From the NCBI GenBank assembly GCA_044235645.1, contig JBIIHQ010000003.1, positions 320-64,319 on the forward strand: a DNA stretch of 64,000 nucleotides, read 5' to 3'. Both the position numbers and the translations under genes were made by a program. The stretch comes from Bdellovibrionota bacterium. Its GTDB lineage: Bacteria > Bdellovibrionota_C > UBA2361 > OMIW01. Of the stretch, positions 10,501 to 33,852 are shown one piece after another; the stretch's first letter is position 1; each line of letters opens with the position of its first letter. The notes below the pieces were generated by a model. The model was given only the letters and a program-made list of their open reading frames with translations, did no database searches and was not told the DNA's origin.

Positions 10501-11151
10501 ATGCCCTCAACCCGAATCAGCTGCATCCTCTTTGACCTCGGCAACGTTGTCGTCTCTGTCGACGCCTCCCGCATCTTCGCTACGCTGGCCGAACGATGTG
10601 GGCAAAATCCCAGCAAGATAGAACGAACCCTCCTTGGAGACAGCGCGTGGTGGCACCACTTCTCGATGACGCACTTCTCAAACGAGTCGGTAGCCGCGTG
10701 GGTGAATGAACGGCTCATGACTGAGCTCCCATCGATGGCTATTATCGATGCGTTTAATGCCGAACTCGGACCTGCCATTCACACAACGTGCGATCTCCTG
10801 CCCTCTCTCCGTCAGCAAGTGGTGCTTGGATGCTTATCCAACACCAATTCAATTCACTGGGAACAGCTCCATCAGCAGTACGACTTCATGGACCAATTCG
10901 CGTACCGATTTGCTTCTCAGGAGATGGGGGTAGCGAAACCCTCTCCGGCAATATATCAACAGGCCGCGCAAGCACTAGACATGTCTCCCAGCGAGATTCT
11001 TTTTTTCGATGATCGTGCCGAGAATATCGCTGCTGCTGCAGACCTCGGGTGGCAGGCGCGTCAATATACGACCCACGAGCAGTTGGTCGCAGATTTGGAG
11101 GATATGGGATTTATGGTGGAGGGTGATGGAACCCGCATCGGAGGTGAGTAA
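10501..11151 (+). CDS. HAD-superfamily hydrolase
   Basis: ISCILFDLGNVVV matches HAD motif I (DxG). A C-terminal FFDD run is present. The start is taken at the internal Met; the ORF itself starts at 10411. Confidence 0.65.
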   Translation: MPSTRISCILFDLGNVVVSVDASRIFATLAERCGQNPSKIERTLLGDSAWWHHFSMTHFSNESVAAWVNERLMTELPSMAIIDAFNAELGPAIHTTCDLLPSLRQQVVLGCLSNTNSIHWEQLHQQYDFMDQFAYRFASQEMGVAKPSPAIYQQAAQALDMSPSEILFFDDRAENIAAAADLGWQARQYTTHEQLVADLEDMGFMVEGDGTRIGGE

Positions 11152-12352: not shown

Positions 12353-13318
12353 ATGCCTCCCACCCTCCTACCCCAAGCCCGTTCTCCGATCCTCCTCGGC
12401 ATGGTGTCGACCGCCCCGTCTCTTCACTACACGGAGCTCGCGCTCTCTTCATTATTGACTTACACCTCACTTATCCCAGACGACACGGTTATCCTCATCG
12501 ACAACGACGGATCCGCCGCCGACCTCGCTATCTCTCGCGATCCCCGCATCACCCGCATCGTCCCTCACCAACCCCGCGGATTTGCCACAAACGGTAACGC
12601 CCTCATCGGTGAGGCTCTCCGCTTGAGACGCGATCTGATTTTTCTCAACAATGACCTTTTATTTTCCCCAAACTGGCTCGAAAGCCTCCTCTCATGTGGT
12701 GATGCGATCGCAATTCCTGCCACGAATCGGGAGTTTCAGTACGCACTTGCAATCGTAAAACCAGGCGAGGATCGAACGACCTCGGTGTTCACCCTCTCCC
12801 CCCGAATGACTATCGCAGATGTAGAGAATCACCTCCACGGATTTCAGGCGCTTGCGGAATTTCATACGAAGCAGAATATCCTCTTACGGGTGATGTTGGT
12901 TCTCCCCTTCTCGTGTGTTCGGATTCCTATCGCTATCGCCCAGGAGGTGGGTGGATTTGACGAATTGTTCGGCAAAGGGGGGGGCGAGGACTATGATTAT
13001 TGCCTCAGAGCAATCATGGCGGGTTTTCCCATTCTCCTTGCGGGGACCAGTCTTATCCTCCACTTCGGAGGACGCTCAACATGGGGAGTTGAGAATGCAG
13101 GGGAGATCCAGGCGCGAGAAGATTTGTTCCGGAGCCGTTTTCGCGAAAAATGGGGAGAGACATTGTACAAGATGATATTTCTTGAGCAGGATATGACGAG
13201 CACCGATCCTGAACTTGGACCTCTCTTTCATCCCGGCCACCTCGCGGAGTTGATCGTTCGTTTGCTCGCGCGAGAGAACATTCCACAACCCACGATATCC
13301 GTACCACTCGGCGGGTGA
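12353..13318 (+). CDS. Glycosyltransferase family 2-like protein
   Basis: VILIDNDGS resembles the GT2 pattern hhhDNGSxD. An acidic stretch follows later. Size is about 320 aa. Confidence 0.5.
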   Translation: MPPTLLPQARSPILLGMVSTAPSLHYTELALSSLLTYTSLIPDDTVILIDNDGSAADLAISRDPRITRIVPHQPRGFATNGNALIGEALRLRRDLIFLNNDLLFSPNWLESLLSCGDAIAIPATNREFQYALAIVKPGEDRTTSVFTLSPRMTIADVENHLHGFQALAEFHTKQNILLRVMLVLPFSCVRIPIAIAQEVGGFDELFGKGGGEDYDYCLRAIMAGFPILLAGTSLILHFGGRSTWGVENAGEIQAREDLFRSRFREKWGETLYKMIFLEQDMTSTDPELGPLFHPGHLAELIVRLLARENIPQPTISVPLGG

Positions 13319-15154: not shown

Positions 15155-16315
15155 ATGAGAATTCCACTTCCCTCAATTCCCCTTGGCTCAGTCGCGGGCA
15201 CCCCGACGGCACTTCATTTTTCAGTCCCCCTCCTTGTGCTTGTGGTGGCAGCAGAGGCAGATTTTACCGGTCAGCAGGCGCTGCTCTTCGGCCTCGCAGT
15301 CATTGCATCCCTCGTTATGCACCTCCTCATCCACCTCGCTCTCGGTCGTTGGGCAGAGCTTCCTGAACCCCCTCGAGGGATAGCCCTCATGCCTTTTGGC
15401 GAGGTGGGAATGGCTCGATGGCATCCCCCCGCTGCCAGTCACCAGAACGGGAATATTCCGGTACCACCACATGCGAGTTCAGTAAACTTGACGAAAGGGG
15501 TCATCGCAATCCTCGCTCCGAGTGGCATTCACCTTGCAGCCGCCGCCGCAATATGGAGCTTCGCCATCGAGCCGTACGTCGGTCCTCCGATTCCGTTTGC
15601 TCACAATCAGATGATGCACCTTTTCGTCATTCAGGCAGCGCTGGGGCTTATCAATCTTCTACCACTCGAGCCTCTTGATACGGGACGCCTCTTCCGGATC
15701 CTCTCCCGACAAAGCGCGACCACGGGAGCAATGTCATCTCTCAGCCTTATCCGCTCAGGCCAGGTGATCACTCTCGGCATCGGGTTGCTCTCTCTCTGGT
15801 TGGGACCATTTTCCCTCTTTTTCCTGTGCCTCATGATTCTCGCCGCTTCAATGCAGATTGTCATGGAGGAGACCGCGCTCCTTGCGGCGGCGGGGATGAG
15901 TGCGCGAGAGGTGATGCGCCCTGCGCAACGGGTTGACTCATTCACCCACGGCGTGACCATATCAGCCGCACTCCGAATCGCACAATCATCCTTTCAGGAC
16001 ATATTTCCAGTTATTTTGCAGGGTCGCATAATCGGTCTTGTCGATAGGCGCACTCTTCTCTCGGCAGCGGCTCATGCAGACAAACAGGAGCAGCTGGTCG
16101 CGGAGCTAGCCTCTCCACCCGCACAGATTGTCAATCTTGAGACCCCGGTCTCAGAGGTTCTCGCGGGGGGAAGCCCTGATGGAGCGGCTGTGGTGGTTTC
16201 GACGGAGAACACCTTCGAGGGGATTATCCTCCCCGAGCACCTGAGCGATGTGCTGATCGTTGGGGCAATCCGGAAGGAGGAACCGCCGGAGGACCCACCT
16301 GAAGTGCCGTATTGA
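15155..16315 (+). CDS. Polytopic membrane protein with a C-terminal CBS-domain pair (site-2-protease-like, no HExxH seen)
   Basis: The N-terminal half is hydrophobic. The C-terminal half has tandem CBS-like segments (IIGLVDRRTLL, GIILPEHLSDVLIVG). A canonical HExxH motif is not evident. Confidence 0.5.
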   Translation: MRIPLPSIPLGSVAGTPTALHFSVPLLVLVVAAEADFTGQQALLFGLAVIASLVMHLLIHLALGRWAELPEPPRGIALMPFGEVGMARWHPPAASHQNGNIPVPPHASSVNLTKGVIAILAPSGIHLAAAAAIWSFAIEPYVGPPIPFAHNQMMHLFVIQAALGLINLLPLEPLDTGRLFRILSRQSATTGAMSSLSLIRSGQVITLGIGLLSLWLGPFSLFFLCLMILAASMQIVMEETALLAAAGMSAREVMRPAQRVDSFTHGVTISAALRIAQSSFQDIFPVILQGRIIGLVDRRTLLSAAAHADKQEQLVAELASPPAQIVNLETPVSEVLAGGSPDGAAVVVSTENTFEGIILPEHLSDVLIVGAIRKEEPPEDPPEVPY

Positions 16316-20546: not shown

Positions 20547-20982
20547 TCACCCATCCTCGAACCTTCACCACCCGCCCATTATCGTCACTCTCCTCTCCGA
20601 ACCCGAGGGTTATCTCTCGCTGCGGAAACTCACCCCATGCCGTCATTCTTTCACACCATTCAATCAATCGAATCACGTGAGACGCGGGGGGCTCAAGAAG
20701 CTCGGGGACCGGTTCGCGCACCCGGTAGAGATCCCAGTGCTCGATCAGAATTCCTGAGGTCGTCGGATATTCGAACGAGAGCACGTAGGTCGGTGAGGAA
20801 ACCGGAACAGTGCTCCCGAGCGCCTCACAGAGCGAGCGGATGAAGGTTGTCTTTCCCGCGCCAAGCTCTCCTGAAAAACCGATCGTGTCCGGGGCTCGCA
20901 CCGATAGCGCCAAACAACGCGCGAGCGCGGCGACTGCCTCCTCGTTTCCGCAGAAATACTCGTTTTCGTCAGCGCAGCTCAT
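20467..20982 (-). CDS. tsaE: tRNA threonylcarbamoyladenosine biosynthesis protein TsaE
   Basis: GELGAGKTTFIRSLCEALG is a Walker A motif in a protein of about 150 aa. The family is YjeE/TsaE. Confidence 0.8.
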   Translation of the reverse strand: MSCADENEYFCGNEEAVAALARCLALSVRAPDTIGFSGELGAGKTTFIRSLCEALGSTVPVSSPTYVLSFEYPTTSGILIEHWDLYRVREPVPELLEPPASHVIRLIEWCERMTAWGEFPQREITLGFGEESDDNGRVVKVRGWVTNPLPATDSADNHSRSTSRARGDVVG

Positions 20983-21059
20983 TTTTATTCGCCATCACAC
21001 GTCGCCGTCACCATTCGTCGGGATTATTGCCCGAGTCTCGAAGCAATCGCAAACGTCGC

Positions 21060-22937
21060 CTATGATACGCAGTACCGAGGCGCGATCACTGGTGCCACCA
21101 CCTCACTTATCGCACGCGCTACTTCGTGCGCAACCAAACCTCTCGCAGAACGGGACTCATCGCCGCCCTCGCCGCCACGCTGACCGCTCGCGTAATACCC
21201 AGCCTCCGTATGAATCAGCACCCCCTCGGCGGCGATTATTCCCCATGTCGGCGAAGCCCCCCCCAATCGCTCCTCTCGCGCACGTGCCTGAGCGCAGAGC
21301 CCTCCGATTATTCCCGCGAGAACATCACCACTCCCCGCTGTTGCGAGGGAAGCCGGACCAGGCGGAATGAGCCAATACCGCTCGCTGTCGGCGATCACCG
21401 TCCCGGCTCCTTTGAGCACGATGGTGCATCCGTAGCGAGTTGCGAGCGCACGCGCCGAGTCTACCGGTTCGGCCTCGATGTGAGCCGAGTCCACTCCAAG
21501 CAACCGCGCCGCCTCGCCGTGATGTGGAGTGAGAATCCACTTTTTTTCTCTCGATGGAAAAGCAAGCGCCCCCCCACTCGACGCGATCAGCGTTAAGCCA
21601 TCAGCATCGATCACAACAGGCAGTTCCCGTCGATGCTCCGCAAGATAGCCCAGCAGCTCACCGAGGAAAAATCGCGTCTCCGCTGCTCGCCCGAGCCCCG
21701 GTCCAACGACGACTGCATGGGCTCCCGCGATTGCCGTCACCACCCGCTCACCGTGCACCGACGCGAAGCACGCACCTTTGCCCACCACCACCCGCAGCAC
21801 CTCGGGCCGAATCCACGACTGGTCGATTTCCGTCGTCCGACATTGCACCACAAGACCGGCCCCCACCCGTTGCGCGGCCTCTGAAACAAGAGCGGGGGCC
21901 CCGGGCATCTCACGCTCCCCACCCACAACAACGACCCGCCCTCGCTGGAACTTATGCACATTCGGGGCACACGGGATGACACATGAAGGGATAGCCCCGC
22001 GCCGCACCGATTTTCGCGCCGTCATCCCCATCCCCTGCGGCTCGCGCTCACCCTGAATCCCACCCTCAATAACCCGAAGTTCGCCACAAACATGAAAGGC
22101 TGGCGCGAGGAGGCATCCGCGCTTTATTCCCTGAACGGTGAGGGTGAGGTCAGCTACAATCCACTGGTCAAAAACACGACCCGATTCGGCACACACCCCA
22201 GTGGGGAGATCAACCGCGATAACCCGGCGCGGGCATCCTCCAGTGCTGACACCGTCGGACTCTTTCAAGCCTCCCCTCTCACCCCGCTGCCACCGCTCAA
22301 CCGCAGCCACCATTCGATTGATCGACCCCTGTGGCGCCCCCCGCTGTCCCGTTCCGAGGAGGGCATCCACGAGAACAGAAGCCCCCGAGATCACCCGATC
22401 AAGCTCGGCATCATCGAGTTCCGTTGGCTCCCGTTCCCCGAATTCGATCCCCCAGCGATCCTGCGGAATCTCCCCGACAACAAAACACCCTCCTCGCCCT
22501 GACTTACTGTCAGCTTTCCACCAACTCCCCTCGAATAGCTCCGCCGCGCTCTCGCGCCATACGGTACTCCTTTGGCTTCCGCCGACAAGAACCACCTGAA
22601 TCGACAACCCCTCCTCGCGCAGAACCCGCGCAATCACCAACCCGTCTCCGCCATTATTCCCCGGCCCCACGAGTACGACGACAGGACCGTCAGAGGTCCC
22701 ATCCAAGCCCCCCCGATGACGCCGAATTTCAGCGCATATCTCCCGACCAATCGCCTCCCCCACCCGACGCATCAAGATAAAGGAAGCCGACCACCCGGTT
22801 GATGATATCTCCGACGACGCTGCGATCTCATCGATAGTGCGCCGGTCCGCAGCCTGCATCTCAGCTACGCTCCAGACAGGAGTCACCACGATTGATCCCG
22901 GGTCGAGGAGTGATGCGGGAGAGGATGGCGGTGCCAT
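21060..22937 (-). CDS. nnr: Bifunctional NAD(P)H-hydrate repair enzyme Nnr (epimerase/dehydratase)
   Basis: The N-terminal VVLVGPGNNGGDGLVIARVL segment belongs to the YjeF_N domain. The C-terminal HAVVVGPGLG...GSGDVLAG segment belongs to the carbohydrate-kinase domain. Confidence 0.9.
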   Translation of the reverse strand: MAPPSSPASLLDPGSIVVTPVWSVAEMQAADRRTIDEIAASSEISSTGWSASFILMRRVGEAIGREICAEIRRHRGGLDGTSDGPVVVLVGPGNNGGDGLVIARVLREEGLSIQVVLVGGSQRSTVWRESAAELFEGSWWKADSKSGRGGCFVVGEIPQDRWGIEFGEREPTELDDAELDRVISGASVLVDALLGTGQRGAPQGSINRMVAAVERWQRGERGGLKESDGVSTGGCPRRVIAVDLPTGVCAESGRVFDQWIVADLTLTVQGIKRGCLLAPAFHVCGELRVIEGGIQGEREPQGMGMTARKSVRRGAIPSCVIPCAPNVHKFQRGRVVVVGGEREMPGAPALVSEAAQRVGAGLVVQCRTTEIDQSWIRPEVLRVVVGKGACFASVHGERVVTAIAGAHAVVVGPGLGRAAETRFFLGELLGYLAEHRRELPVVIDADGLTLIASSGGALAFPSREKKWILTPHHGEAARLLGVDSAHIEAEPVDSARALATRYGCTIVLKGAGTVIADSERYWLIPPGPASLATAGSGDVLAGIIGGLCAQARAREERLGGASPTWGIIAAEGVLIHTEAGYYASGQRGGEGGDESRSARGLVAHEVARAISEVVAPVIAPRYCVS

Positions 22938-23088
22938 GGGAGGGTCAGTTTTAGCAAAGGAGGAGCTTAATACTCAGAATAACTCAGGACGAACAAAGCC
23001 CACGGGGCGCGCGCCAAACCGGGACTCTCCCCGCAATCTTCGCATGATGCCCTCGTCTCCGATACGGGCGGTCGTAGATGGACCCCCC

Positions 23089-23160
23089 GGGGTGTCTGAG
23101 ACCTTAGGACCTTGGGGTGAGACCACCCCCTTGCTCGGGGTGTCAGAGACCTCGGGGTAG
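23089..23160. repeat. Tandem GC-rich repeat (two or three copies of GGGGTGTC[T/A]GAGACC(T)) in the nnr-pilin intergenic region
   Basis: ggggtgtctgagacc...ggggtgagacc...ggggtgtcagagacc is seen directly. It is related to the motifs at 62247, 63229 and 63309. Confidence 0.6.
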
Positions 23161-23371
23161 GATACCGAGCTGAGCCCCCCAAAAAATCCCCTCGAATCAC
23201 ACAACAATTTTCTCCCCGTTACGATACCTAACCATCCCTGCGCATCCGCCCCTCCGCGATGCGATGCTCGCTCCCGATTGCAATCGCCAGTTCGGCCTCG
23301 CTCGAGCGTCACCTCTCCTTCGAGAGGAACCACATTTCATTTTTGTGTCTGACTATTCAGGAACATCTTCC

Positions 23372-23776
23372 ATGAGCCAATCACGTAACCATCCCATTCC
23401 CCCCATCATCCCTGAGCGCGGCTTCACCCTCCTCGAGCTCCTCGTCGCCCTCGTCATTATCAGCGTCCTCACCGCAACCGCCCTCCCCGAATACCGCCGA
23501 TTCCGCCAACAGGCCTTCGACAACCGAGCCCTCACCGACCTCAGGACCGTTGCGCTCGGAGAGGAGGCGTATTTTCTCGAGAATGAGAAATATTTTTCGT
23601 GCAGGAATGAAACGTGTGCGACATTGCCCGGCGTGAATCGCATATCTGAGGGGACAGACGTCGTGGTGGAGGGATCCGACGAGGGGTGGACCGGAGAGGC
23701 AAAACACCCGCGGGGGACTGGCCGGGTGTGGCGATGGGATAGTTCGCGGGGAGGGTTGGAGTTTGACCGAGATTAA
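23372..23776 (+). CDS. Prepilin-type N-terminal cleavage/methylation domain protein (type IV pilin / pseudopilin)
   Basis: The leader MSQSRNHPIPPIIPERG is followed by FTLLELLVALVIISVLTATALPEYRR, the classic G|FTLLE class-III signal with E+5. The ORF starts at 23264, so the internal Met was used. Confidence 0.7.
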   Translation: MSQSRNHPIPPIIPERGFTLLELLVALVIISVLTATALPEYRRFRQQAFDNRALTDLRTVALGEEAYFLENEKYFSCRNETCATLPGVNRISEGTDVVVEGSDEGWTGEAKHPRGTGRVWRWDSSRGGLEFDRD

Positions 23777-23805
23777 CTTCTCCACGCTAGAAAAGGCGAA
23801 GAAGA

Positions 23806-25182
23806 ATGAATTCACAGTACGGAACCAAAAGGAATCCCGACTTGAGGGTCGTAACCCCAAGTGACAGTACCGCACACTTACCGGAGAGCGGCGCGGAATT
23901 CTGTGAGTTAGTCAGGTGGGGCCTCGAAGGCACCGATGGGACAGATCAACAAGTGCTGCAAGTTGCAGAGGATATCCTTCTTGAATTATCAACAGACTTC
24001 GATGAGTCCCCGTCGCCCTCGAGCCGAGTCGCAGCGGTTTATAATCTTCTGAGAAACGCCCCTGATCTTCAGGAAAGGCTGTGGAAGGAGATTGTCGGAG
24101 ATAACGATACAAATAAGGTTGAAGAACTTGTCAAAAGTCATCAGATATCATTTGTGACATCCCGACCAGCTTTAAGAAATGACCTGCTTCAAACCCCAAA
24201 TGCCCGAGAGTCAGTCGGCATCATTGCCGATGCGTTGCTCATGGCTCATCCCGATAAGAAAAGCGTTAATTCCCTAATGGCCTCGCTCGACCCAGCTGCA
24301 TTCCGGTTTATCGGCGATGATGGTATCTCGGTTCTGCGGAGTTGGGCAGGGTTCGATTCCGTGGCTCCCGGTGATTTATCCGACATCCCGAAAATAGTAG
24401 CGAGGGCAGTTAACGGGATTAGGCTTAGATCGCGAGCGCAGGATGAGCAGGCTGAAACCTTGGTGAACCGCATGTTACAGTATCCGAGGGACGCATTTGA
24501 AGGAGGATTTAAAACACAATCGGGCCGACAAGTACGCGAGTTCGATCCGGATTCGCTAAAACAATCAGTGACTCGTTTTCTGTCGAAACTTCGTACGTTC
24601 CAGGGATTGGATGGTCATCCGGATGAGTCAACTATCAACCAATATGGATCCTCCCTTCCCGAGATGTCCGAGTTCGCTGCTCTGTCACCTCGGTGTAAAC
24701 AAGATGTTCTGAATGGATTGGCAGCGGGAAGGGACAAAATAGAACAGCTGCTCACAAGTCGAATGCAAGCCGAATGTATCGGGCATGATTGCGAAATGCT
24801 AGCAGCCAGAATTCTTGAGAAAATGGACTCTCTTGAAGGCATGAGTGGGATCTCTTTCGTCCAATCAAGAAAGGAGTCAGATACCGACCATCACGGTGTG
24901 GATTTTCGCGTTACAACTCCATACGGGGTGGCTCATATCGACGTCAAAGGGAGTTATTCGGCAGAGCACTCAAGTGATGCCGAAAGAGCCGATTTCTCCA
25001 ATCGGAGGGGATTAGCGAGGGGAATAGCATTTCTACCAAATGATAACGGCTCAGTTCGCATTTACCGATTTCCTGAGCAAGCGGTTGTCAATCGGTCGCT
25101 ATCGGAGAATGAAATAGCGGGCAATATTAGTTCAGCAATCAAAAGAGCCTTAACTCTTCCCCCACATCTTCTTGGTCAGTAA
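23806..25182 (+). CDS. Hypothetical 458-aa protein in a lower-GC island. It may have a C-terminal PD-(D/E)xK-like segment.
   Basis: Long clean ORF. GC of this gene is about 47-50%, against about 58% for the flanking genes. No known domain recognised. The C-terminal HHGVDFRVTTPYGVAHIDVKGSYS segment has a D...(I)DVK arrangement. Confidence 0.5.
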   Translation: MNSQYGTKRNPDLRVVTPSDSTAHLPESGAEFCELVRWGLEGTDGTDQQVLQVAEDILLELSTDFDESPSPSSRVAAVYNLLRNAPDLQERLWKEIVGDNDTNKVEELVKSHQISFVTSRPALRNDLLQTPNARESVGIIADALLMAHPDKKSVNSLMASLDPAAFRFIGDDGISVLRSWAGFDSVAPGDLSDIPKIVARAVNGIRLRSRAQDEQAETLVNRMLQYPRDAFEGGFKTQSGRQVREFDPDSLKQSVTRFLSKLRTFQGLDGHPDESTINQYGSSLPEMSEFAALSPRCKQDVLNGLAAGRDKIEQLLTSRMQAECIGHDCEMLAARILEKMDSLEGMSGISFVQSRKESDTDHHGVDFRVTTPYGVAHIDVKGSYSAEHSSDAERADFSNRRGLARGIAFLPNDNGSVRIYRFPEQAVVNRSLSENEIAGNISSAIKRALTLPPHLLGQ

Positions 25183-25290
25183 GCAAGATTTTCTGATGAG
25201 ATTCCGCTCTCGCGTGTGGAGAAATAGACTGATGAGATGATTGAGTTTATAACGAGAACATCCGTTTTTTAGTTCCGCCCGCCCCCCCCA

Positions 25291-26880
25291 ATGCCCAACC
25301 TCATCATCATTAACATTGACGGCCTCAAACCCGCCACCCTTGCCGATGGCCTTGCCGCGGGGAGTTTGCCTCATCTTGCTTCGATCCTCCTCCCTTCCCC
25401 GCACTCCCAACCTCTTACCTTCAGCCTCATCTCCCCCGCCCCGTCGACTACCTTCACCTGTCAGGGTTCGTTCATAACCGGCGCCTCTCCTGGACAGCAT
25501 CGGGTGGTGGGGAATCAGTTTTTCGATCGTCTCGGGACGAACTCTCGAGGGAAACCTCGTCATTATGGCCTCGATGTGGGAGATTCTTTGTCGTATGACG
25601 ATGCAGTTGGGGTGTTTCGGCCCGTTGTGGCAGTGGATACGGTTTCAATCTCGGACTTAGGTTTCTCATCCTCCCACCCACCGAACTCGGGTCTTGCCGA
25701 CCGGCTCATGCCCTCCGATTTGCCGACCGTCTTTCAGTCAGCCGCCTCTCGTGGCCTCACGAGTGCGGCTATTCACTTTATGTACGGCCGAGGCTCGTCC
25801 GCGTGGGTACGGCCGAACCTGCTCGATCTCGCTCGGTTTAAGCGGGGGGGGGCGGTGTGGGGATTATCACCAGAGGCGTTTGATCGGCGAATGGTCGAGC
25901 GTTTTCGAGGGTTGCTCAGCCACGCCGCTCAGCCTCCTCACCTACTGCTTTTGTACTTTATGGGTCTTGATATGACCTCGCACCTGCAGGGGCCGCAGGC
26001 CCAGGCAGAGTATCTGATGCGGGTAATCGATCCACTCGTGGGGGAGATCCTCACCACCCTGGCAAAACGCGGCTATCGAAACGGTACCACCTTTATTGTG
26101 ATGTCAGACCATGGGCAGGTCGCCGTTACTCCCGATGAGCGTCATGCTCTCCGGATTGGTAACCCCTTCACGAAGCCTCACCACGAATTCTGCGACATGC
26201 TGACCTCAGGGGGCGGAAGATTACACCGATTCCCCACGACGGAGGGACGTTCTGAAATCATCTGCACCCCCAATGGAGGTCTCGCCCACCTTTACCTTCG
26301 CGACCACGCGGCTCCGTGGCACGAGCCACCGTCCTTTGAATCTCGGGTACTCCCCCTTGCCCTCACCCTGGCGGAGGCGAGCGGTGGGAGCTCCAGCGAT
26401 TTGCCAATCGCCCCCGATGCCTTCTCCGCGGTCCTTGTCCGAAACACGGCAGCGGCGGGATGGCACGCTCCGTATGACGGAGTCGCCCCGACCGGTGCCC
26501 TTATTCCGCTCCCTGAGTTCTTTGCTCACCCCTCTTTTGCTCCGTATAGCGAACCAGCCCGGCGGATCAGCGAGCTCGCGGTCCCGGAGAGTGGTGACAT
26601 CATACTGTTGGCAAACACGGAACACGGCTACGCGTTCGGCGGGCCTCTGAAAGGGCAGCACGGAGGACTGCACCACGAAGAATCAGTCTGTACATTCGCC
26701 GTCGGGACACAGTGGCTGGCAAACAACGAGCAAACAGCGGACGGAGGACGGAAAGATGTTGAGCGCAGAATAGAGATATCGCTCCACACTGAGCGGGCAC
26801 AGCATCAACGTCACTACAATTCCCTCTCAGATGTGGCAGCTGTCACAGCAGCGATCCTCCCACCCTTAAAAATGTCCTGA
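25291..26880 (+). CDS. Alkaline-phosphatase-superfamily enzyme (type I phosphodiesterase / nucleotide pyrophosphatase-like)
   Basis: The N-terminal LIIINIDGLKPATL segment contains the metal-binding DG motif. FIVMSDHGQ and a later HGG pair are typical of the AP superfamily. Confidence 0.65.
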   Translation: MPNLIIINIDGLKPATLADGLAAGSLPHLASILLPSPHSQPLTFSLISPAPSTTFTCQGSFITGASPGQHRVVGNQFFDRLGTNSRGKPRHYGLDVGDSLSYDDAVGVFRPVVAVDTVSISDLGFSSSHPPNSGLADRLMPSDLPTVFQSAASRGLTSAAIHFMYGRGSSAWVRPNLLDLARFKRGGAVWGLSPEAFDRRMVERFRGLLSHAAQPPHLLLLYFMGLDMTSHLQGPQAQAEYLMRVIDPLVGEILTTLAKRGYRNGTTFIVMSDHGQVAVTPDERHALRIGNPFTKPHHEFCDMLTSGGGRLHRFPTTEGRSEIICTPNGGLAHLYLRDHAAPWHEPPSFESRVLPLALTLAEASGGSSSDLPIAPDAFSAVLVRNTAAAGWHAPYDGVAPTGALIPLPEFFAHPSFAPYSEPARRISELAVPESGDIILLANTEHGYAFGGPLKGQHGGLHHEESVCTFAVGTQWLANNEQTADGGRKDVERRIEISLHTERAQHQRHYNSLSDVAAVTAAILPPLKMS

Positions 26881-26929
26881 GAATACGAATCGCCTCGTCT
26901 CAGCCGTTCATTATCGGTTGACGCCATGC

Positions 26930-28249
26930 CTATACAATGGTGCCAGCGCTCATTAATACTCGACCAAAAATAACTTCGACGGCCCGGGTGTGCCGCTGCA
27001 CGTCGAATATCTCATCGATCCGTTCCCGCCCAAGCGCTTGCAGCGCCGTGTCATCGCTGAGAATCCTCTCATGAAAGCTTCGCGCCGCCGAGCCTTCATG
27101 AATGGCATCGTGCGCGTGACGTTGGACGATGCGGTACGCCTCTTCACGCGATATGCCGGCATCAGTAAGCGCTATAAGAACTGAGCCTGAAAAGATCGTC
27201 CCCCTGAGCAGTTCGAGGTTTGACTGCATTCTCTCAGGAAATACTTGGAGGCCTGTGATCAAACCATGAAGCCGATGCAACATATAGTGGGCGACGATGC
27301 AGCTATCGGGTGCGACTACCCGTTCAACCGAGCTATGGCTGATATCACGCTCATGCCACAACGGGACGTTCTCGATCGTGGCATGAGCGTATCCCCGGAG
27401 CAGCCGCGCGAGGCCGGTGATATTTTCCGCTGAGATAGGATTTTTCTTGTGGGGCATCGCAGACGAGCCCTTCTGCCCCTTCGAAAACCCCTCCTCAACC
27501 TCCCGCACCTCGGTTCGCTGGAGGTGTCGAAGCTCAACAGCAATTCGCTCGACACTCGCCCCGAGAAGCGCAAGCTCATTAAAAAACCGCGCGTGACGAT
27601 CGCGGTGAACGATTTGGGATGGGACCGATTCGGGCTGGAGTCCGAGTCGCGACAGGACATACTGCTCAACCGCCGGCGAGACTGAATGATAGGTCCCAAC
27701 CGCGCCTGCTATCTTACCGGTGCGAATATCCCGAATCGCTCCTGAGAATGAACATAGCCATCGCTGAAGCTCGGCGTACCACGAGAGCACCTTGAGCCCG
27801 AACGTCGTCGGCTCCGCATGGATACCGTGACTCCTTCCGATGCAGATCGTGAATTTATGCGCCAGCGCAAGCTCGCGGAGGGCCACGAGCACCTTCTCAC
27901 ACATGTTTTGTATGAGATCACCCGCCTCTCCCAGCTGCACCGCGAAGGCGGTATCGATTAGATCGCTCGACGTCATCCCCCGATGGAGAAAGCGCGCATC
28001 AGGACCGGCGACCTCGGCAACACTCGTGAGAAACGCGATAACATCGTGCTTAAGCTCACGTTCCAGTTCATCGGCTCTTGCGGGATTTGATATCGCCTTG
28101 CTCCGCACAGCAGCAGCAACGCCAGCGGGGACCACCCCCTCCTGCTCCATCCCCTCGAGCGCGAGCAACTCGACCTCGAGCCACGTCGAATACCGATGCT
28201 CATCGGACCAGATCGCTGCCATATCGGGGAGAGTATAACGAGAAATCAT
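26930..28249 (-). CDS. purB: Adenylosuccinate lyase
   Basis: MISRYTLPDMAAIWSDEHRYSTWLEVELLALE is a PurB-type N-terminus. The fumarate-lyase signature is present internally. Confidence 0.9.
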   Translation of the reverse strand: MISRYTLPDMAAIWSDEHRYSTWLEVELLALEGMEQEGVVPAGVAAAVRSKAISNPARADELERELKHDVIAFLTSVAEVAGPDARFLHRGMTSSDLIDTAFAVQLGEAGDLIQNMCEKVLVALRELALAHKFTICIGRSHGIHAEPTTFGLKVLSWYAELQRWLCSFSGAIRDIRTGKIAGAVGTYHSVSPAVEQYVLSRLGLQPESVPSQIVHRDRHARFFNELALLGASVERIAVELRHLQRTEVREVEEGFSKGQKGSSAMPHKKNPISAENITGLARLLRGYAHATIENVPLWHERDISHSSVERVVAPDSCIVAHYMLHRLHGLITGLQVFPERMQSNLELLRGTIFSGSVLIALTDAGISREEAYRIVQRHAHDAIHEGSAARSFHERILSDDTALQALGRERIDEIFDVQRHTRAVEVIFGRVLMSAGTIV

Positions 28250-28387
28250 GCGAGGGTGCCTTCTAATGAGGGGAGGTAATTGCCCTAATAAAGGATGAAT
28301 TGCGCAAAAAGTTCTTGACGAACGCGAGCATTACATGGAGACGGATGGTACCACCTATTTGATGAGCACGCACCTTATGAGGACGTA

Positions 28388-29224
28388 TCACCCCCCGACA
28401 GCCATTCCCTCCAGCAACCCTTCGACACAGAACAGCGGAGTCGCGGTATGCACACTGCCGTAGGTCAAGGTCGCGGTGTAGCCCGCGCTTCGGTGAGCAG
28501 CGAGAGCACGGGTACCCGCTGCGATGGCATGACTGGGGGTATTGCTGTTTTCACTGAGATGACCGAGCACCACCACCGAGAGCTGGGGATGGGCGCACCC
28601 CTCAAGCGCTTCAGCCATCGCATCGTTTGATAGATGGCCGTGCGCCGAGGCGATCCGTTGCTTGAGAGACCATGGATACTCACACTCTCGCAGCAACTCG
28701 AGATCGTGATTCGATTCGAGGACGATGGCGTTGGCCCCCTGAAGAGCAAAGGTGACATTCGGGGTGACCTTCCCAAGGTCAGTCGCCTGAACAAAACGAA
28801 ACCCTCCCCCCTCAATCGCAAATCCGAGAGGGTTGACCGCATCGTGCGCAATACGAAATGGGTGGATCGTGACCTCACCGAGCGAGAAGCTCTTTCCAGG
28901 GCTAATGTGCTCAACCGCAAAAAGGCCCTCGACCTCAGCCGCCGTCTCGGCGGTCGTGTACACCGGGAGCCGCATCCGGTTCGAGAGGACCCGAAGCCCC
29001 GCAATGTGGTCGGAATGTTCGTGGGTCAGGAGAATCCCCTGTACCGTCTTGAGGTCGACCCCCATATCGTGCAACCGCACCCCCGCCTGTCGCGCTGAGA
29101 GGCCACAATCGATAAGAAGTCGGGTATTACCCACCTCGATAAAGGTGCTGTTGGCAGCGCTACCACTCGCCAGGACTGAGAATCGCATGCGCGGGACCAT
29201 AGCACCCACGCGCGGCAACCTCAA
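28388..29224 (-). CDS. MBL-fold metallo-hydrolase
   Basis: FSVLASGSAANSTFIEV...LLIDCG...LLTHEHSDHIAGL carries the HxHxDH motif. Confidence 0.8.
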   Translation of the reverse strand: MRLPRVGAMVPRMRFSVLASGSAANSTFIEVGNTRLLIDCGLSARQAGVRLHDMGVDLKTVQGILLTHEHSDHIAGLRVLSNRMRLPVYTTAETAAEVEGLFAVEHISPGKSFSLGEVTIHPFRIAHDAVNPLGFAIEGGGFRFVQATDLGKVTPNVTFALQGANAIVLESNHDLELLRECEYPWSLKQRIASAHGHLSNDAMAEALEGCAHPQLSVVVLGHLSENSNTPSHAIAAGTRALAAHRSAGYTATLTYGSVHTATPLFCVEGLLEGMAVGG

Positions 29225-29284
29225 TGGATAAGAGGCAATACGAACACCTTCTCACAACGCATCAATCCTGATCAATAATCCTGA

Positions 29285-29974
29285 TCAACGTAGTACGCTG
29301 TCCGAAACCACGGCCCGATATCGGTACGCAATTCCCCCCGTCAAGGCGCGACTCTCGGGATTAACGAATCCCGCTTCGCGCAACAACTCACAAAAAGCGC
29401 CGTCGCACGGGAAGAGGCGCGACGTTTCTGGGAGGTATTCGTATGCTGCTCTATCTCCCGTCACGAGACCTCCCAACCGCGGCAATATCCATCGGCTGTA
29501 GCTTTCGTATACCTTGGCAAAAAAAGCGTTCCGTGGCTGACCAAACTCGAGGACATGGATCGTGCCCCCCGGCTTCAGCACCCGATGAAGCTCGCGAAGC
29601 CCCGCAAGCGGGTCCTCGAAATTACGCACGCCAAAAGCAACGGTTATGGCATCAAAGGTCGAATCGGCGAACGGTAGTCTCAACCCATCGCCACACACGA
29701 GGCTCTTCAGTCCACGGGCTGCACCAACTTCAAGCATCGGCAAACAAAAATCCACTCCAACCGCAAGCCGACATCGCCGCAGCAACAGCGCCAACACTCC
29801 CCCCGTCCCCGTCGCCACATCGAGCACTGCCGCGGTCGGCGGGACGGCACGAACCAATCCATGCCGCCAAAGCAGATGAATCCCCCCACTCAGCACGTTA
29901 TTCGCAAAATCATACCGCCGTGCTATCCGTCCGAACATCGACTGAACGCTCCGCGCTTGCACCTGAACTGCCAT
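29285..29974 (-). CDS. ubiE: Demethylmenaquinone / ubiquinone C-methyltransferase
   Basis: MFGRIARRYDFANNVLSGGIHLLWR and VLDVATGTGG (SAM motif I) are present, in a protein of about 229 aa. Confidence 0.8.
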   Translation of the reverse strand: MAVQVQARSVQSMFGRIARRYDFANNVLSGGIHLLWRHGLVRAVPPTAAVLDVATGTGGVLALLLRRCRLAVGVDFCLPMLEVGAARGLKSLVCGDGLRLPFADSTFDAITVAFGVRNFEDPLAGLRELHRVLKPGGTIHVLEFGQPRNAFFAKVYESYSRWILPRLGGLVTGDRAAYEYLPETSRLFPCDGAFCELLREAGFVNPESRALTGGIAYRYRAVVSDSVLR

Positions 29975-30412
29975 CGGTCACCCTCCGCGACTATCCCTGA
30001 ATGGGGAATCAATCCGGTTCACGACGGCCGATAGCCGCCACGGCGAGCAGAAACGGGGATTGTGCCCCTCTCTTCTCGGGCTCTACCATACGTGGGGAAT
30101 ATCCCCCAAAGCCCTTGAGTTGCTCCCGAAGCAGTATGCACCGAGTACCCCTCGCCGCAAACCCCACCACCCTGAAATCTTAGTAAACCACTCCGTATGA
30201 CCTCATCGTCCCGGCCCCCTTCACCACCGCGCACCACCCGGACACAACGAAAACGGGCACGCGAGCGCGCAGCCCGGGCCAACGCTCCCCGCCATCAATT
30301 CCAAATACCACCGCGGCATCGGGCGTCTTCAGCTGACCCGACAACCAGTATCGCGGCTCTCCCCCCCAAAGATCACCCCTCTCGGAACGGCGCCTCTTCG
30401 CATCACGCCACG

Positions 30413-31330
30413 ATGCCTCCAATACCATTACCCTCGGCGCACGGTGCCGAGGGGGTCATTCATTCAGCTCTTCCCTCCTCCTCCCCCTCCCTCTTAGCAG
30501 AGCTTCCCCTCGCACTCGCGGTTAGTGGCGCGGGGCTCCTCGGAGTTGTCGTCTCGTTAGGGATAATCCTGAGAGGGGACATACTATTTCCCCACCGCAT
30601 CCAAGCGCTCTTAGCGGTTTTGATTGCGGCCGCAACCTGGTCACTTTGTAGTCGCGGTGCCCCCCTCCTTCCGAAAATTAGCCCTCGCTGGGCCCGCATC
30701 TGTGCAAGCGGAATATTTCTTTTAGCGATTTTTTTCCTCCTCGCCGCCGTGCATCGGACGAAGGAGATGCTCGCTTATATAAACGGGGGATTTAATGCCT
30801 TCTTGATCCTCACCCTTGCTTTAACAGCCGACGCTGTTTTAAAGGTACGCCAGCGACTCGACCTCCGATATGTGGCCGTTTTCTCGTGGGCAACCATGCT
30901 CGGAGCACTCTCACTTGCGACCATGCTCGGTGGGTGGGACGTCGGCTCGGCGATAATAGCGACTGGCTATGGAGCTCTCTGCGCAGCCGTCGCCCTCGCG
31001 ACGGATCGACCATTGAGCGCCAAAAGGTCGGCTCCTGCGTATCGCTCGCTCGTGTTCGCAGGAGCCGTTTCCCTCCCGGCTCTCGCAGTGCTTTCGGGAC
31101 AACCGCCATGGTATCTGGTGACCTATGCTCTCCTTATTCCCACGTTCTTTCACCTCCGCCCTCTTACGCCCTCCACCCCTTTTCCCTCGCCTTTCCGGTC
31201 GCTGAGTCTCGCTGCCTGGTTTTTGGGATGCTTGGTGATGCTTGCTCTCGTGAATGCCTATCTCGCAAAGGAGCCGCAAAGGGATAAAATTTCAGATGAA
31301 AAAGCTGCTCAGGCCACAGTACGTGAGTAG
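30413..31330 (+). CDS. Hypothetical polytopic membrane protein
   Basis: About 305 aa with multiple hydrophobic spans. The ORF starts at 30197, and the internal Met was chosen as the start. Confidence 0.4.
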   Translation: MPPIPLPSAHGAEGVIHSALPSSSPSLLAELPLALAVSGAGLLGVVVSLGIILRGDILFPHRIQALLAVLIAAATWSLCSRGAPLLPKISPRWARICASGIFLLAIFFLLAAVHRTKEMLAYINGGFNAFLILTLALTADAVLKVRQRLDLRYVAVFSWATMLGALSLATMLGGWDVGSAIIATGYGALCAAVALATDRPLSAKRSAPAYRSLVFAGAVSLPALAVLSGQPPWYLVTYALLIPTFFHLRPLTPSTPFPSPFRSLSLAAWFLGCLVMLALVNAYLAKEPQRDKISDEKAAQATVRE

Positions 31331-31443
31331 TTCCTCCCTGATTTTCCGGTCATAGTAATTTAACTCTTCCCATGACCCTCACCCTCTGCAAGGATCGTCT
31401 CTATCACGCGTTAGCCGCACCCGCGATTCCGGAGAAATAATTT

Positions 31444-32526
31444 ATGCAGCTATCAGGCGATATCGTTTTCACCTCAGGGGCCGTCGGAGATACCGATATC
31501 TGGCGACTTGATCTCGAAACCCGGGCACTCACCCAACTCACCACCGGCAATGATATGAACGAGCAACCTCGCTGGTCCCCCAGCGGGAGTCGCATAGCCT
31601 TCATCTCAAACCGCGACAAAGGCATTCCAAAACTTTTTATCATGGGGGCGAATGGGGGACAGGTAACTCAACTCACCAAAGGCGACCATTTTTGTGATGG
31701 CGTCTCGTGGTTCCCCGATGGACAGCGGATCCTCTTCAGCGGAAACCTTCAGCAATCAGATGAGATAGACCTTTTCTCGATTGACACGCGAAATCAACAA
31801 CCACCCCTCAAGGTAATGACCGGAGAGGGCATCGAATCTGGGCCCTGCGTCTCTCCCGACGGCTCGCATATTCTCTACTGCGTTGCCTCCGAATCCGAGG
31901 AGCCGGGCCTTCCCCGAAATTATGATATCTGGGAGTATCATATCCAGTCTGGAAGGCGAAACCAGATGACCGATCATCTTCTTCGGGATTTTTCCGCCCG
32001 CTACGCTCCAGATGGACATCGTATCGCCTTCATATCGCAAAGGACCCGAGGAGACGAAGAAGAGCTCACAAAAGCCTTTGCCCATCTGCAACACCTCGTG
32101 CTCACCTCGGCGCCAATTCGCGAGATTGATAACGCTATCCGTGCGGTTCAGGGACTTGAGCGACGAGCCGATCTCTGGCTCTTAGATCGACATCAACCCA
32201 AACTCGCTTATCCGTTAACGTCGGGCCGCCTCGTCTCTGCCTCATTCACCTGGTCTCCCGATGGTCGATACATATGCTATGCAGCAGCAGAACCCGAAAG
32301 TGACGGCGTGACCCGGCTTCACGTCGTCGATGTCAAAACGGGAGAATCAGAACCTCTCGAATTCGACCGAACCCCCCTGATGGTAGAGCTCAAAACAGAT
32401 GATGCCCGCCTCCTCAGCCGCACAGGCCTCGGTTGGCTGATACCCGATTTTCTGCAAAGAAGGATGGTGCCCCGGGTGGTTCATGGGTCAGAGTACCAAC
32501 CAGACTGGCGGGGCGAGGCTGGGTGA
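31444..32526 (+). CDS. TolB-like / PD40 beta-propeller repeat protein
   Basis: WSPDGSRIAFISNRDKG, WFPDGQRILFSG and YAPDGHRIAFISQR are repeated PD40 motifs. Confidence 0.7.
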   Translation: MQLSGDIVFTSGAVGDTDIWRLDLETRALTQLTTGNDMNEQPRWSPSGSRIAFISNRDKGIPKLFIMGANGGQVTQLTKGDHFCDGVSWFPDGQRILFSGNLQQSDEIDLFSIDTRNQQPPLKVMTGEGIESGPCVSPDGSHILYCVASESEEPGLPRNYDIWEYHIQSGRRNQMTDHLLRDFSARYAPDGHRIAFISQRTRGDEEELTKAFAHLQHLVLTSAPIREIDNAIRAVQGLERRADLWLLDRHQPKLAYPLTSGRLVSASFTWSPDGRYICYAAAEPESDGVTRLHVVDVKTGESEPLEFDRTPLMVELKTDDARLLSRTGLGWLIPDFLQRRMVPRVVHGSEYQPDWRGEAG

Positions 32527-32715
32527 TGGTTAAGTAAGCGTTCTCTCAGATGTCGCCACGTCAGTATAAATCGTTTGCCCCTGAGCTACCACTCGGTCGA
32601 GAGTCTGTCACAAAGGTCCCCGAGCGAATGCAGATCCTCTCAGAGATCTTTTGCGCGAAATCGTCCGCAACAGTGTCTGAGGTTACCCGATTGTCATTGA
32701 AGGTAATCATCAATT

Positions 32716-33852
32716 TCACCTCGGGTAAAGTTTGTAGTACCTCGAAAGAACATCAGGAGCGGAAGGATTATCGTAGCGTGGAGTGTTACGCATGGCCTCT
32801 ATGTGAGCGTTGACCACATCACTCGATACCGGCTCCACAAAGATCGTCGCCCCCTTATCAGGCCCGCCTACCGTAAGATTCGGGGAAATTGCCACATGAA
32901 CTCCAGCAACCCGCCCATCCACGACGTAGGCAGAGCCACTTGTTCCTGGCTCCGTCGGGAAAGTAGAGTGGTACCCGAGGACGCTCGCGGCAACCCCTTC
33001 GATGCCTTTCGGGTGAAGGTTTGATGCCGGCCCGTTCGTAGATGCCGTATAAACACCGACGTTATTAGCCATAATCTCAACCTGAGCCCCTTCAGCTCCT
33101 AATTCCTGCCGGGAAGTGATGCCGAGCCCCGTTGCCGCGACAGTATCACAAAGCCCTTGCGGATCTTTTTCCGTACCGTCACACGATGGACCAAATGTCC
33201 CTGCAGGCGCCCCCGCAACAAGGGTTGCGGATGTGGTCAGAAGGTCCCGACGTCCGTCCGGGGAAATCGCTGCAACGGGCAACCGCGGTCCACCAGCCGG
33301 GACCGTGAAGGACACCAAAGCCAAGTCTGGCTGCCCTCCGGAGGGTTTTGAAGATACCCGATCCACCGGATAAATCCCGTCCTTGGTTATCACATGCGGT
33401 GGCACCGATCCCTTCTTGTCAGGTGCCGTTGGATCGTTGAACACCCATCCAGGCTCTACCCGTCCGGAGGATGAATAGGGAACGTGACCTGCTGTGAGGG
33501 CATAGTACGTCATGGAACCATCCGGATTGCTCTGCGAGTGAACGACCATTCCTGAGCCCGGATCGCCAGCTCCTTGAATCTCAACGATCCCCCCTTTGAG
33601 CACCTTATTCTGTAAACCTATGGCCGCCGAAGGTACGGATATCGAGCCTCGAGGTAGAGGCATCGTTTGAAATAACTCCGCCCGGGGGGGAGCGCTTGCA
33701 CCAAGAGGTGACGGGCGAATGCCAGCAGTACCTGGACCCACGGGCGGAAGAGTCGCTGTACCCTTGCCCTCTTCTGCGGGATGAGGAGGTTGAATCGGAG
33801 GTGTCGGAAGTGATTGACCTATTGGCATGGCGTTCCACACGGAGAAAGTCAA
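32716..33852 (-). CDS. Secreted trypsin-like (S1 family) serine protease with a Pro-rich N-terminus
   Basis: A candidate catalytic triad is present: YALTAGHV for His, DLALVSF for Asp and GTSGSAYV for Ser. Confidence 0.5.
   Translation of the reverse strand: MTFSVWNAMPIGQSLPTPPIQPPHPAEEGKGTATLPPVGPGTAGIRPSPLGASAPPRAELFQTMPLPRGSISVPSAAIGLQNKVLKGGIVEIQGAGDPGSGMVVHSQSNPDGSMTYYALTAGHVPYSSSGRVEPGWVFNDPTAPDKKGSVPPHVITKDGIYPVDRVSSKPSGGQPDLALVSFTVPAGGPRLPVAAISPDGRRDLLTTSATLVAGAPAGTFGPSCDGTEKDPQGLCDTVAATGLGITSRQELGAEGAQVEIMANNVGVYTASTNGPASNLHPKGIEGVAASVLGYHSTFPTEPGTSGSAYVVDGRVAGVHVAISPNLTVGGPDKGATIFVEPVSSDVVNAHIEAMRNTPRYDNPSAPDVLSRYYKLYPR

Follow-up and report, generated by a model that had tools for sequence, protein, structure and literature searches.

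The 64-kb window analysed here, that is the whole stretch of 64,000 nucleotides from contig JBIIHQ010000003.1 of a Bdellovibrionota bacterium, carries on its forward strand a gene for a prepilin-type pilin, an orphan open reading frame (ORF) of 458 amino acids (aa), named X in the following, and a gene for a phosphodiesterase. X is predicted to represent a novel, very rare family of RmuC-like nucleases, and it occupies a sharply delimited slot behind the pilin gene in which alleles are swapped. An earlier reading made from the sequence alone (the sequence-only reading) had given the positions and the order of the three genes, which the ORF map reproduced, and had placed the downstream enzyme in the alkaline-phosphatase family, which is confirmed by its Pfam match. 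The locus contains the following features:

22938..23371 (+): intergenic region between the divergent yjeF/nnr gene (-) and the pilin gene (ORF map), the presumed promoter region of a pilin-X-phosphodiesterase transcription unit
23372-23776 (+): prepilin-type pilin or pseudopilin with class III signal, 134 aa (Pfam N_methyl, 8e-9; TIGR02532, 8.5e-8)
23763..25290 (+): inserted cassette X1, 1528 bp, composed of the pilin tail with its stop codon, a 29-nt spacer, the X gene and a 108-nt spacer
23806-25182 (+): X, 458-aa orphan ORF (ORF map)
25183..25290 (+): right-hand spacer of the cassette, 108 nt, ending in a poly-C tract that is followed by the phosphodiesterase ATG
25291-26880 (+): type I phosphodiesterase/nucleotide pyrophosphatase of the alkaline-phosphatase superfamily, 529 aa (PF01663, 5e-28)

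The GC content across 23800-25400 is 0.465-0.517, compared with 0.55-0.64 in the flanks. X itself has a GC content of 0.493 (z = -2.8) and a GC content at third codon positions (GC3) of 0.466 (z = -3.2), both the lowest among the 44 ORFs scored in the window, where the minima of the remaining ORFs are 0.509 and 0.516. The low GC content of the 458-aa gene had already been remarked upon in the sequence-only reading, which had however counted the pilin gene as part of the low-GC island. This has to be corrected, as the pilin gene shows native composition (GC 0.598, GC3 0.696) and the island consists of X plus its spacers (23763-25290). The phosphodiesterase gene (GC 0.591, GC3 0.628) looks native as well and constitutes the conserved right flank outside the island.

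The insertion was delimited by blastn comparison with metagenome contigs L087 and L088 from a conspecific lineage. The left flank of 3.05 kb (window 20712-23762) corresponds to positions 1-3051 of L088 and the right flank of 7.7 kb (window 25291-33000) to positions 2092-9801 of L087, each with 99.8% identity. Between these flanks, no homology was found by blastn between window 23763-25290 and the slot in L087/L088, which holds 2032 bp encoding P0021 (X2), a protein of 649 aa that is about 23% identical to X. Both alleles, X1 and X2, share identical boundaries, on the left directly after pilin codon 130 and on the right exactly at the phosphodiesterase ATG. Codons 1-130 of the window pilin gene (to 23761) represent the conserved native gene, while the last four codons (FDRD) and the stop codon come from the cassette; the native end ...GGLE* is present in L088 and in contig L092 of a sister species. 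In L088 the pilin stop codon overlaps the X2 start codon (TAATG), where the window has the 29-nt spacer instead. The pilins of the window and of L088 are 97.7% identical although they precede different cassettes, the intergenic region 22938..23371 is 99.8% identical in L088 and the nucleotide sequence of the phosphodiesterase gene has 99.8% identity in L087. Each allele was found in independent assemblies, X2 in L087/L088 and X1 in the window, in L001 and in others; within the pilin cluster the 134-aa form, which marks X1, occurs on 7 contigs and the 130-aa form, which marks X2, on 2 contigs.

In a pilin-anchored metagenome scan, contigs of a sister species (L092/L093) were identified that contain no X and have 83 bp between the pilin and the phosphodiesterase gene. 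The gene order there is yjeF(-), pilin, phosphodiesterase, purB(-), a gene for a beta-lactamase-fold protein(-) and a ubiE-like gene(-). The amino acid identities to the window are 84% for PurB, 74% for the UbiE-like methyltransferase, 73% for the beta-lactamase-fold protein, 70% for the pilin and 48% for the phosphodiesterase. At the cassette no marks of a mobile element, i.e., repeats, terminators, promoters, tRNA genes or an integrase, were detected. By its composition, the empty slot in the sister species and the presence of a different cassette between 99.8%-identical flanks, X is a horizontally acquired, strain-variable cassette, and the acquisition by horizontal transfer that the sequence-only reading had proposed from the GC content is thereby supported by population data. 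Allelic replacement via homologous recombination in the conserved flanks would be the simplest mechanism.

A length variant of X was observed as well. At a G-run in GGTGGGGCC (window 23929, X codon about 42), L001 carries a 1-nt deletion that shifts the reading frame of the X 5' end, which explains the 421-aa gene call on this contig, and a 421-aa variant with altered N-terminus (P0007) was found in another assembly. The 421-aa form reflects either strains with an N-terminally truncated or inactivated X or a homopolymer assembly error.

The family of X is very small. A word-indexed search in 5.8 billion proteins returned two clusters only, namely the near-identical copies (99%) and the 67%-identical homologue P0002/P0010, and its repetition with the family profile yielded zero new members. 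When 1.84 billion cluster representatives were searched exhaustively with a HMMER profile, nine clusters were obtained, with eight distant relatives added (E 1e-26 to 3e-13; 21-34% identity), and in total the family comprises about 10 clusters among 15 billion proteins. No relatives were found with the X profile in 185,579 species genomes and no match to X was found by tblastn in phage and plasmid records. In the source databases the members are labelled 'hypothetical protein' only. Nearly all of them are acidic and two carry extra N-terminal extensions of ~200 aa.

For X no match was obtained in Pfam, NCBIfam and PHROG and no meaningful match in PADLOC, in line with the earlier statement that no domain could be recognised. 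Extending the searches in Pfam, NCBIfam, PADLOC and PHROGs to all family members gave nothing significant either, with RmuC as the only recurring weak match. Neither X nor any other family member has a signal peptide or a transmembrane (TM) segment (maximum KD19 0.67-1.33). The ratio of nonsynonymous to synonymous substitution rates (dN/dS) between X and its 67% homologue is 0.21 overall, showing that the protein is under purifying selection; it is 0.42 for the first 50 codons, 0.20 for the helical region and lowest, 0.165, for the C-terminal domain. An AF2 model from three sequences was too weak for use (pLDDT 65). The model built from the family alignment of 10 sequences (m0646ba6a13fe) reached a pLDDT of 86.8 and a pTM of 0.82, with C-terminal blocks mostly >89, and divides X as follows:

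23806..24720 (+): residues 1-305, a disordered N-terminus (about residues 1-26) followed by an all-alpha multi-helix region (residues 29-304)
24721..25182 (+): residues 306-458 plus stop codon, predicted RmuC-like PD-(D/E)xK domain (motif, AF2, HHalign)
24793-24795 (+): putative catalytic E330
24901-24903 (+): putative catalytic D366
24940-24942 (+): putative catalytic D379
24946-24948 (+): putative catalytic K381

In the model, residues 1-26 have pLDDT values < 50 and the region up to residue 305 is presumed to be a recognition or regulatory domain. Foldseek returned for the helical region generic helical-repeat proteins only (E >= 0.12). A borderline match of residues ~140-200 (window ~24220-24400) to the helical DNA-binding region of endonuclease III (9nzd, 9nzc; E 0.014) is not relied on here; it covers a conserved stretch running from PEaLrFlG over edGisaLRsr to AGFdSV and may indicate a helix-hairpin-helix-like DNA-binding element.

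The order of the elements of the C-terminal domain in the model is helix 309-342, strand 350-353, strand 367-371, strand 374-381, helix 384-401 and strand 407-411, followed by further strands and a final helix, and this core topology, α-β-β-β-α-β, is the one canonical for PD-(D/E)xK enzymes. Ten residues are invariant in all nine sequences that cover the domain, G326, E330, L337, S358, D361, G364, D366, G374, D379 and K381, and these sequences are otherwise 22-36% identical, apart from one close pair (72%). E330 is part of the first helix, D366 is located where strand β2 begins and D379-x-K381 belongs to strand β3, which is the canonical PD-(D/E)xK arrangement; the motif string DHHGVDFRVTTPYGVAHIDVKGSYS comprises residues 361-385. 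The nuclease-compatible D...(I)DVK arrangement noticed in the sequence-only reading corresponds exactly to the invariant D366...D379-x-K381, and the reading of the C-terminus as nuclease-like is supported.

RmuC is the top weak Pfam hit for two of the nine members (best E 0.036) and for the family consensus (E 0.058, 12.9 bits), and the match covers exactly the E...D...DxK stretch. With a gathering cut-off of 26 bits for PF02646 the family lies below membership in Pfam RmuC. In an HHalign comparison of the X C-terminal alignment with a core alignment of 11 RmuC sequences (E. coli RmuC and ten diverse homologues), 60 columns were aligned with the motifs in register (P 9.6e-4, probability 22%). 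The score of 27.8 was reached by none of 240 shuffled controls, with a mean of 12.8 (max 22.4) for column-shuffled and of 14.0 (max 21.6) for block-shuffled profiles, and the reversed profile scored 20.3. A distant relationship to the RmuC family is supported by these scores, but not membership in it. Structural searches with the full-length model against PDB and BFVD gave no significant match. The sub-threshold BFVD list contains six VRR-NUC proteins, one protein of the 'PD-(D/E)XK nuclease superfamily' and one endonuclease I. Of the VRR-NUC alignments, all sub-threshold, the best five span about 117-136 columns with a root-mean-square deviation of 5-8 Å and target-normalised TM scores of 0.38-0.51. 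A search of the PDB chain sequences with C-terminal profile and consensus returned noise only, e.g., GAPDH and eIF4E2. Taken with the model, these data make it probable that the X C-terminus adopts a PD-(D/E)xK fold. The invariance of the E/D/DxK set across sequences of 22-36% identity argues for retained catalysis, which is, judged from sequence conservation, rather likely.

Residue by residue, G326..E330 of X corresponds to the GxWGE motif of the RmuC family (PF02646; E. coli RmuC/YigN), D366 to the aspartate of (R/Q)PD and D379-x-K381 to hhD(A/S)K. X differs from RmuC in that it possesses neither an N-terminal TM segment nor the RmuC-type coiled-coil, having its own helical N-terminal region of ~300 aa instead. 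Furthermore, the distal block of RmuC (invariant F125 and P127, nearly invariant E129) has no counterpart in X, and the alignment ends after the DxK strand. X appears to be distantly related to RmuC-type PD-(D/E)xK nucleases and is placed outside Pfam RmuC. With regard to RmuC itself, a bona fide rmuC gene was observed on the 36-kb plasmid NZ_CP130455.1 of Candidatus Fervidibacter sacchari (23971-26036) between a helicase-related and a DUF1156 gene. This arrangement resembles a defence- or restriction-type operon, and RmuC may participate in conflict systems outside the Pseudomonas Shield system.

Members of the X family were found in no fewer than five neighbourhoods, which are unrelated and have no partner gene in common. 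The sequence-only reading had named ubiquity, conserved synteny and inconspicuous composition as findings that would speak against it; X was instead found to be extremely rare, not syntenic across relatives and compositionally anomalous. The 67% homologue (contigs L002-L004) lies in an unrelated neighbourhood with a Fic protein gene upstream and a gene for an AAA_14/DUF4143 ATPase downstream. DNA homology between the window and L002 (72%) begins within the pilin gene, at 23615, and both L002 and L003 have a pilin pseudogene fragment directly upstream of X, which comprises the C-terminal half only and contains in-frame stops (tblastn E 2e-12; pilin-family profile E 2.4e-13). The family member P0022 (contig L089) is encoded about 1.5 kb 3' of gspJ, on the same strand as a complete gspC-D-E-F-G...J operon of a type II secretion system (T2SS), and a gene for an unrelated 282-aa protein of no assigned function plus a 550-bp gap lie between the pseudopilin genes and X. 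Pilin-less contexts are DUF971, X and a Ser/Thr kinase-HEAT gene in two related genomes (L085/L086), in which X has native GC content, a rhodanese gene followed by X, and ATP-grasp genes followed by X and a methyltransferase gene. With the pilin-family profile no remnant was found upstream of X in L085, L086, L089 and L090; for L090 a second pilin remnant had been considered, which reached only E 0.32 in tblastn and was rejected by this profile. The association of X with pseudopilin genes, seen in the window slot, in the L002 remnant and at the L089 T2SS operon, is recurrent and probably non-random. The pilin link is older than the insertion in the window and it is not obligatory, as X persists beside a dead pilin gene and without any pilin gene.

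The reading that we favour, tentatively, is that X may act alone as a nuclease in genetic conflict or defence, with expression from the pilin operon. X would be a cytoplasmic two-domain enzyme with a ~300-aa all-helical N-terminal region for target recognition or regulation and a ~150-aa RmuC-like PD-(D/E)xK domain, in which E330, D366, D379 and K381 would coordinate the metal and carry out the cleavage of phosphodiester bonds. On the + strand of 22938..23371, near the pilin gene, neither a consensus promoter for sigma-70 or sigma-54 nor an Rfam element was found. As the cassette has no recognisable promoter consensus and is sited 3' of the pilin gene, X is presumably transcribed from the pilin promoter. 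The cassette is foreign to the genome; strains would exchange it by homologous recombination in the conserved flanks, and X would degrade incoming DNA, either from phages or from transformation. Its profile, soluble, encoded by a single gene, exchanged, polymorphic within the species and absent from the sister species, is typical of conflict genes. A precedent is ShdA, the core RmuC-domain nuclease of the Shield system, which was shown to confer phage defence alone, to degrade DNA and to lower transformation efficiency; it is membrane-bound, and Shield is so far found only in Pseudomonas (PMC10270631). X and ShdA are alike as single proteins with an RmuC-type nuclease core encoded by a strain-variable accessory gene. 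They are unlike in that X is soluble, scores below Pfam RmuC, has no PADLOC model and stems from an uncultured, distantly Bdellovibrionota-like lineage; by analogy, X may work as ShdA does. The population behaviour, the autonomy as a single gene and the ShdA precedent together suggest a stand-alone conflict or defence nuclease, and the defence gene that the sequence-only reading had offered as its alternative is the option preferred here. A further likeness exists to the Shedu protein SduA, in the available description a single-gene defence nuclease with variable N-terminal sensor domains (10.1101/2023.08.10.552762): by that description both would be units of one gene in which a variable N-terminal region is joined to a C-terminal nuclease of the PD-(D/E)xK type that is conserved. 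A difference is that X matches no PADLOC model.

Several observations weigh against a conflict or defence nuclease. No PADLOC model, i.e., no model of a defence database, matches X, and its neighbours in the window are housekeeping genes that form no defence island. The X genes of L085/L086 appear vertically stable and have native GC content, which is atypical of defence genes with their fast turnover. A pure defence model leaves the recurrent proximity to pseudopilin genes unexplained, and both nuclease activity and phenotype of X are predictions at this stage. Elsewhere in the family the neighbours do include defence-type genes: in L002, X has on one side a SoFic-type Fic protein of near full length (1e-53) and on the other an AAA_14/DUF4143 protein matching PDC-S01 (6e-49), and in L086 the kinase downstream of X matches PD-T4-6 (all PADLOC). 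In a control, however, three of ten distant genes from the same loci matched PADLOC at E < 1e-20 via generic domains. The reading of these neighbourhoods as defence islands was downgraded because of this high background, and the defence-type neighbours are suggestive only.

The pseudopilin genes lead to the question of whether X works together with the adjacent pilin as a pseudopilus, T2SS or type IV pilus accessory factor, for example as a nuclease in the cytoplasm or close to the inner membrane by which DNA contacted or taken up by the pilus is processed, or as a pilin-specific factor. X lies directly 3' of the prepilin gene in the window, L001 and L088, with overlapping stop and start codons in the latter, the 67% homologue in L002-L003 keeps the 3' remnant of a pilin gene directly upstream and P0022 is encoded near gspJ of a complete gsp operon, so that two of about six independent contexts adjoin pseudopilin genes, which is by a rough informal estimate more than expected by chance. 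Against this, X is intact and under purifying selection beside the dead pilin gene, four contexts contain neither pilin nor remnant, the sister species has pilin and phosphodiesterase without X, and the L089 X is separated from the pseudopilin genes by the intervening gene and gap. Pilins with 97.7% identity precede two X alleles with 23% identity, which shows that X does not co-vary with the pilin, and X has no TM segment or signal peptide. The pilin accessory proteins of the Tfp type are located in the membrane or face the periplasm, and they accompany particular pilin alleles. X resembles their cassettes as a strain-variable gene directly 3' of a pilin gene, with a replacement boundary at the pilin 3' end and conserved surroundings; it differs in being cytoplasmic and nuclease-like, in residing behind a near-invariant pilin in different alleles and in occurring also without a pilin gene. 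In P. aeruginosa, tfpO, tfpW, tfpY and tfpZ are such strain-variable accessory genes 3' of type IV pilin genes, of which the glycosylating proteins modify the pilin and TfpY likely binds pilins and promotes pilus assembly (PMC11841053). All in all a role as accessory factor appears unlikely. The same low standing is given to a combination of both ideas, a new soluble RmuC-like family with a functional link to the pseudopilus machinery of a T2SS or type IV pilus, e.g., as guard nuclease against DNA that arrives on the pilus route. If this were true, X would be expressed from the pilin operon and phage pressure would keep it polymorphic, and it would stand for a new defence system made up of one gene, in which the sensor domain would be new as well, and for a new hot spot of cassette exchange next to a pilin gene.

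The remaining explanations are weaker still. A selfish, homing-type nuclease that cuts X-less junctions of pilin and phosphodiesterase genes and is copied in by repair, dragging flanks along, would account for the precisely intergenic insertion, the presence/absence polymorphism between close relatives, the nuclease-type domain, the foreign composition and the pilin fragment co-transferred to an ectopic site in L002. Alleles of 23% identity with identical boundaries fit flank-mediated allelic replacement better, and purifying selection has acted long-term across the whole 458 aa; moreover, X is stable and GC-adapted in L085/L086, it occurs in unrelated loci with no shared target sequence, it shows no similarity to known homing-endonuclease families and no match in phages or plasmids, which together make homing improbable. 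A similarly small probability is assigned to a protein that retains the nuclease fold in a non-nuclease role, either DNA-binding or regulatory or as an RmuC-like housekeeping factor that limits recombination. PD-(D/E)xK folds are often reused for binding, RmuC itself is annotated just as 'putative recombination limiting protein', the middle region weakly resembles the helical DNA-binding region of endonuclease III, and the gene is stable in L085/L086; the full E/D/DxK set is nevertheless invariant in sequences of 22-36% identity, and a housekeeping role fits poorly with variable presence and with the swapping of alleles within a species. The lowest probability is given to secretion of X as an effector or polymorphic toxin, with the nuclease as its warhead and Sec-independent delivery. 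T2SS substrates require Sec or Tat signals, and X has no signal peptide or TM segment. A known trafficking domain is absent too, the only match being to LXG with E 0.077 in one member, and there is no candidate immunity gene, as X is followed by the 108-nt spacer and the phosphodiesterase gene, with the antisense ORF 25150-25563 overlapping the start of the latter. These points stand against the strain-level allelic diversity, the variable disordered N-terminus (pLDDT < 50 for residues 1-26; dN/dS 0.42), the C-terminal nuclease-type domain as present in many polymorphic toxins and the location of one member beside a T2SS operon. The cargo or effector locus linked to a pilus or T2SS that the sequence-only reading had considered was not established, given the lack of export signals, the intact X beside a dead pilin gene and the four pilin-less contexts.

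If X is an active conflict nuclease, it would add a new and very rare family with a new helical N-terminal domain to the repertoire of RmuC/PD-(D/E)xK defence enzymes, from an uncultured lineage that is barely present in reference genomes. The locus constitutes a clean natural cassette replacement at single-nucleotide resolution, with two alleles of ~23% identity in one species and an empty site in its sister, and lends itself to studies of the use of a pilin transcription unit by accessory genes and of the maintenance of such a polymorphism. The recurrent proximity of X and pseudopilin genes provides a concrete starting point for testing whether pilus-type machines and nucleases might be linked.

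The pilin carries a canonical class III signal, MSQSRNHPIPPIIPERG|FTLLE, with a short and basic leader of 17 aa, G-1, F+1 and E+5, and the cleavage site is followed by the hydrophobic helix (MSQSRNHPIPPIIPERG|FTLLELLVALVIISVL). The score for TIGR02532 is above the cut-off of 16.3 bits. A subfamily (GspG, PilA, PpdD, ComGC and others) could not be assigned with the equivalog models, which scored far below their cut-offs and matched the N-terminal helix only. The leader had been called longer than usual in the sequence-only reading. This holds in comparison with the orthologous pilins in L092 and L094, which have leaders of about 8-9 aa, and not in comparison with GspG of the T2SS operon beside P0022 (L089 6059-6166), whose leader of 18 aa, MSQSRGSDMPERKMRERG|FTLVE, makes 17 aa unremarkable. 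Both this GspG leader and the window pilin start with MSQSR, which suggests either that the hosts are related or that the orphan pilin of the window is a paralogue of the GspG type. It is the sole protein with a prepilin motif in the 64-kb window, and no pilus or T2SS machinery genes were found within about 10 kb of it. Upstream of the pilin gene there is a 17-nt direct repeat, CGGGGTGTCTGAGACCT, at 23088-23104 and 23136-23152 with copies that are 94% identical and 48 nt apart; it includes a short inverted motif, GTCT-G-AGAC, and could be a regulator binding site.

The phosphodiesterase has no signal peptide and no PADLOC match, and its gene lies directly 3' of the pilin gene in the sister species L092/L093, too. 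Between the window (25291-26880) and L092 (1288-2796) it is 48% identical, and YjeF 39-47%, while PurB is 84% identical in the same pair. The pairing of pilin and phosphodiesterase genes is conserved across the window and the sister species, and the phosphodiesterase, which is predicted to have no signal peptide, appears to evolve fast. Directly 5' of its ATG a poly-C tract of variable length was observed, C8 in the window (25282-25289) and C9 in the near-identical contig L001; length variation in this translation-initiation region could modulate phosphodiesterase expression. The antisense ORF at 25150-25563 (-), 137 aa, overlaps the X stop codon and the phosphodiesterase start, and a 105-aa version is called on L001; it is probably spurious, because it is antisense to a conserved gene start.

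The genes on either side belong to housekeeping functions, with tsaE also located upstream on the opposite strand:

21060-22937 (-): yjeF/nnr
26930-28249 (-): purB, adenylosuccinate lyase, downstream of the locus

The rest of the window encodes leucyl-tRNA synthetase (LeuRS), a second class I aminoacyl-tRNA synthetase, a carboxyltransferase, chorismate-binding and thiamine diphosphate (ThDP)-dependent (MenF/MenD-like) enzymes, a UbiE-family methyltransferase, GTP cyclohydrolase I, a lipid A acyltransferase and similar proteins, and contains no tRNA genes. The window represents a normal chromosomal region of a bacterium that has been poorly sampled. Among the 185,579 species-representative genomes the best match of its PurB is 58% identical and comes from a metagenome-assembled genome (MAG) labelled Bdellovibrionales (L005), which has the same synteny of purB and a beta-lactamase-fold gene; the next matches (51-54%) are mostly from MAGs of the 'Deltaproteobacteria' type. 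For several long ORFs, the longest with 991 aa, no Pfam family was found at E <= 1e-5 (45221-48196, 1961-3652, 11009-12277, 15155-16315, 30197-31330, 32716-33852 and 12353-13318), which fits a poorly sampled lineage. The metallo-beta-lactamase-fold protein encoded at 28388-29224 (-) shows a weak match to Anti-Pycsar Apyc1 (37 bits, with a cut-off of 50 bits). As its position beside purB is conserved in the sister species and in the distant MAG L005, it is probably a housekeeping hydrolase rather than an anti-defence gene.

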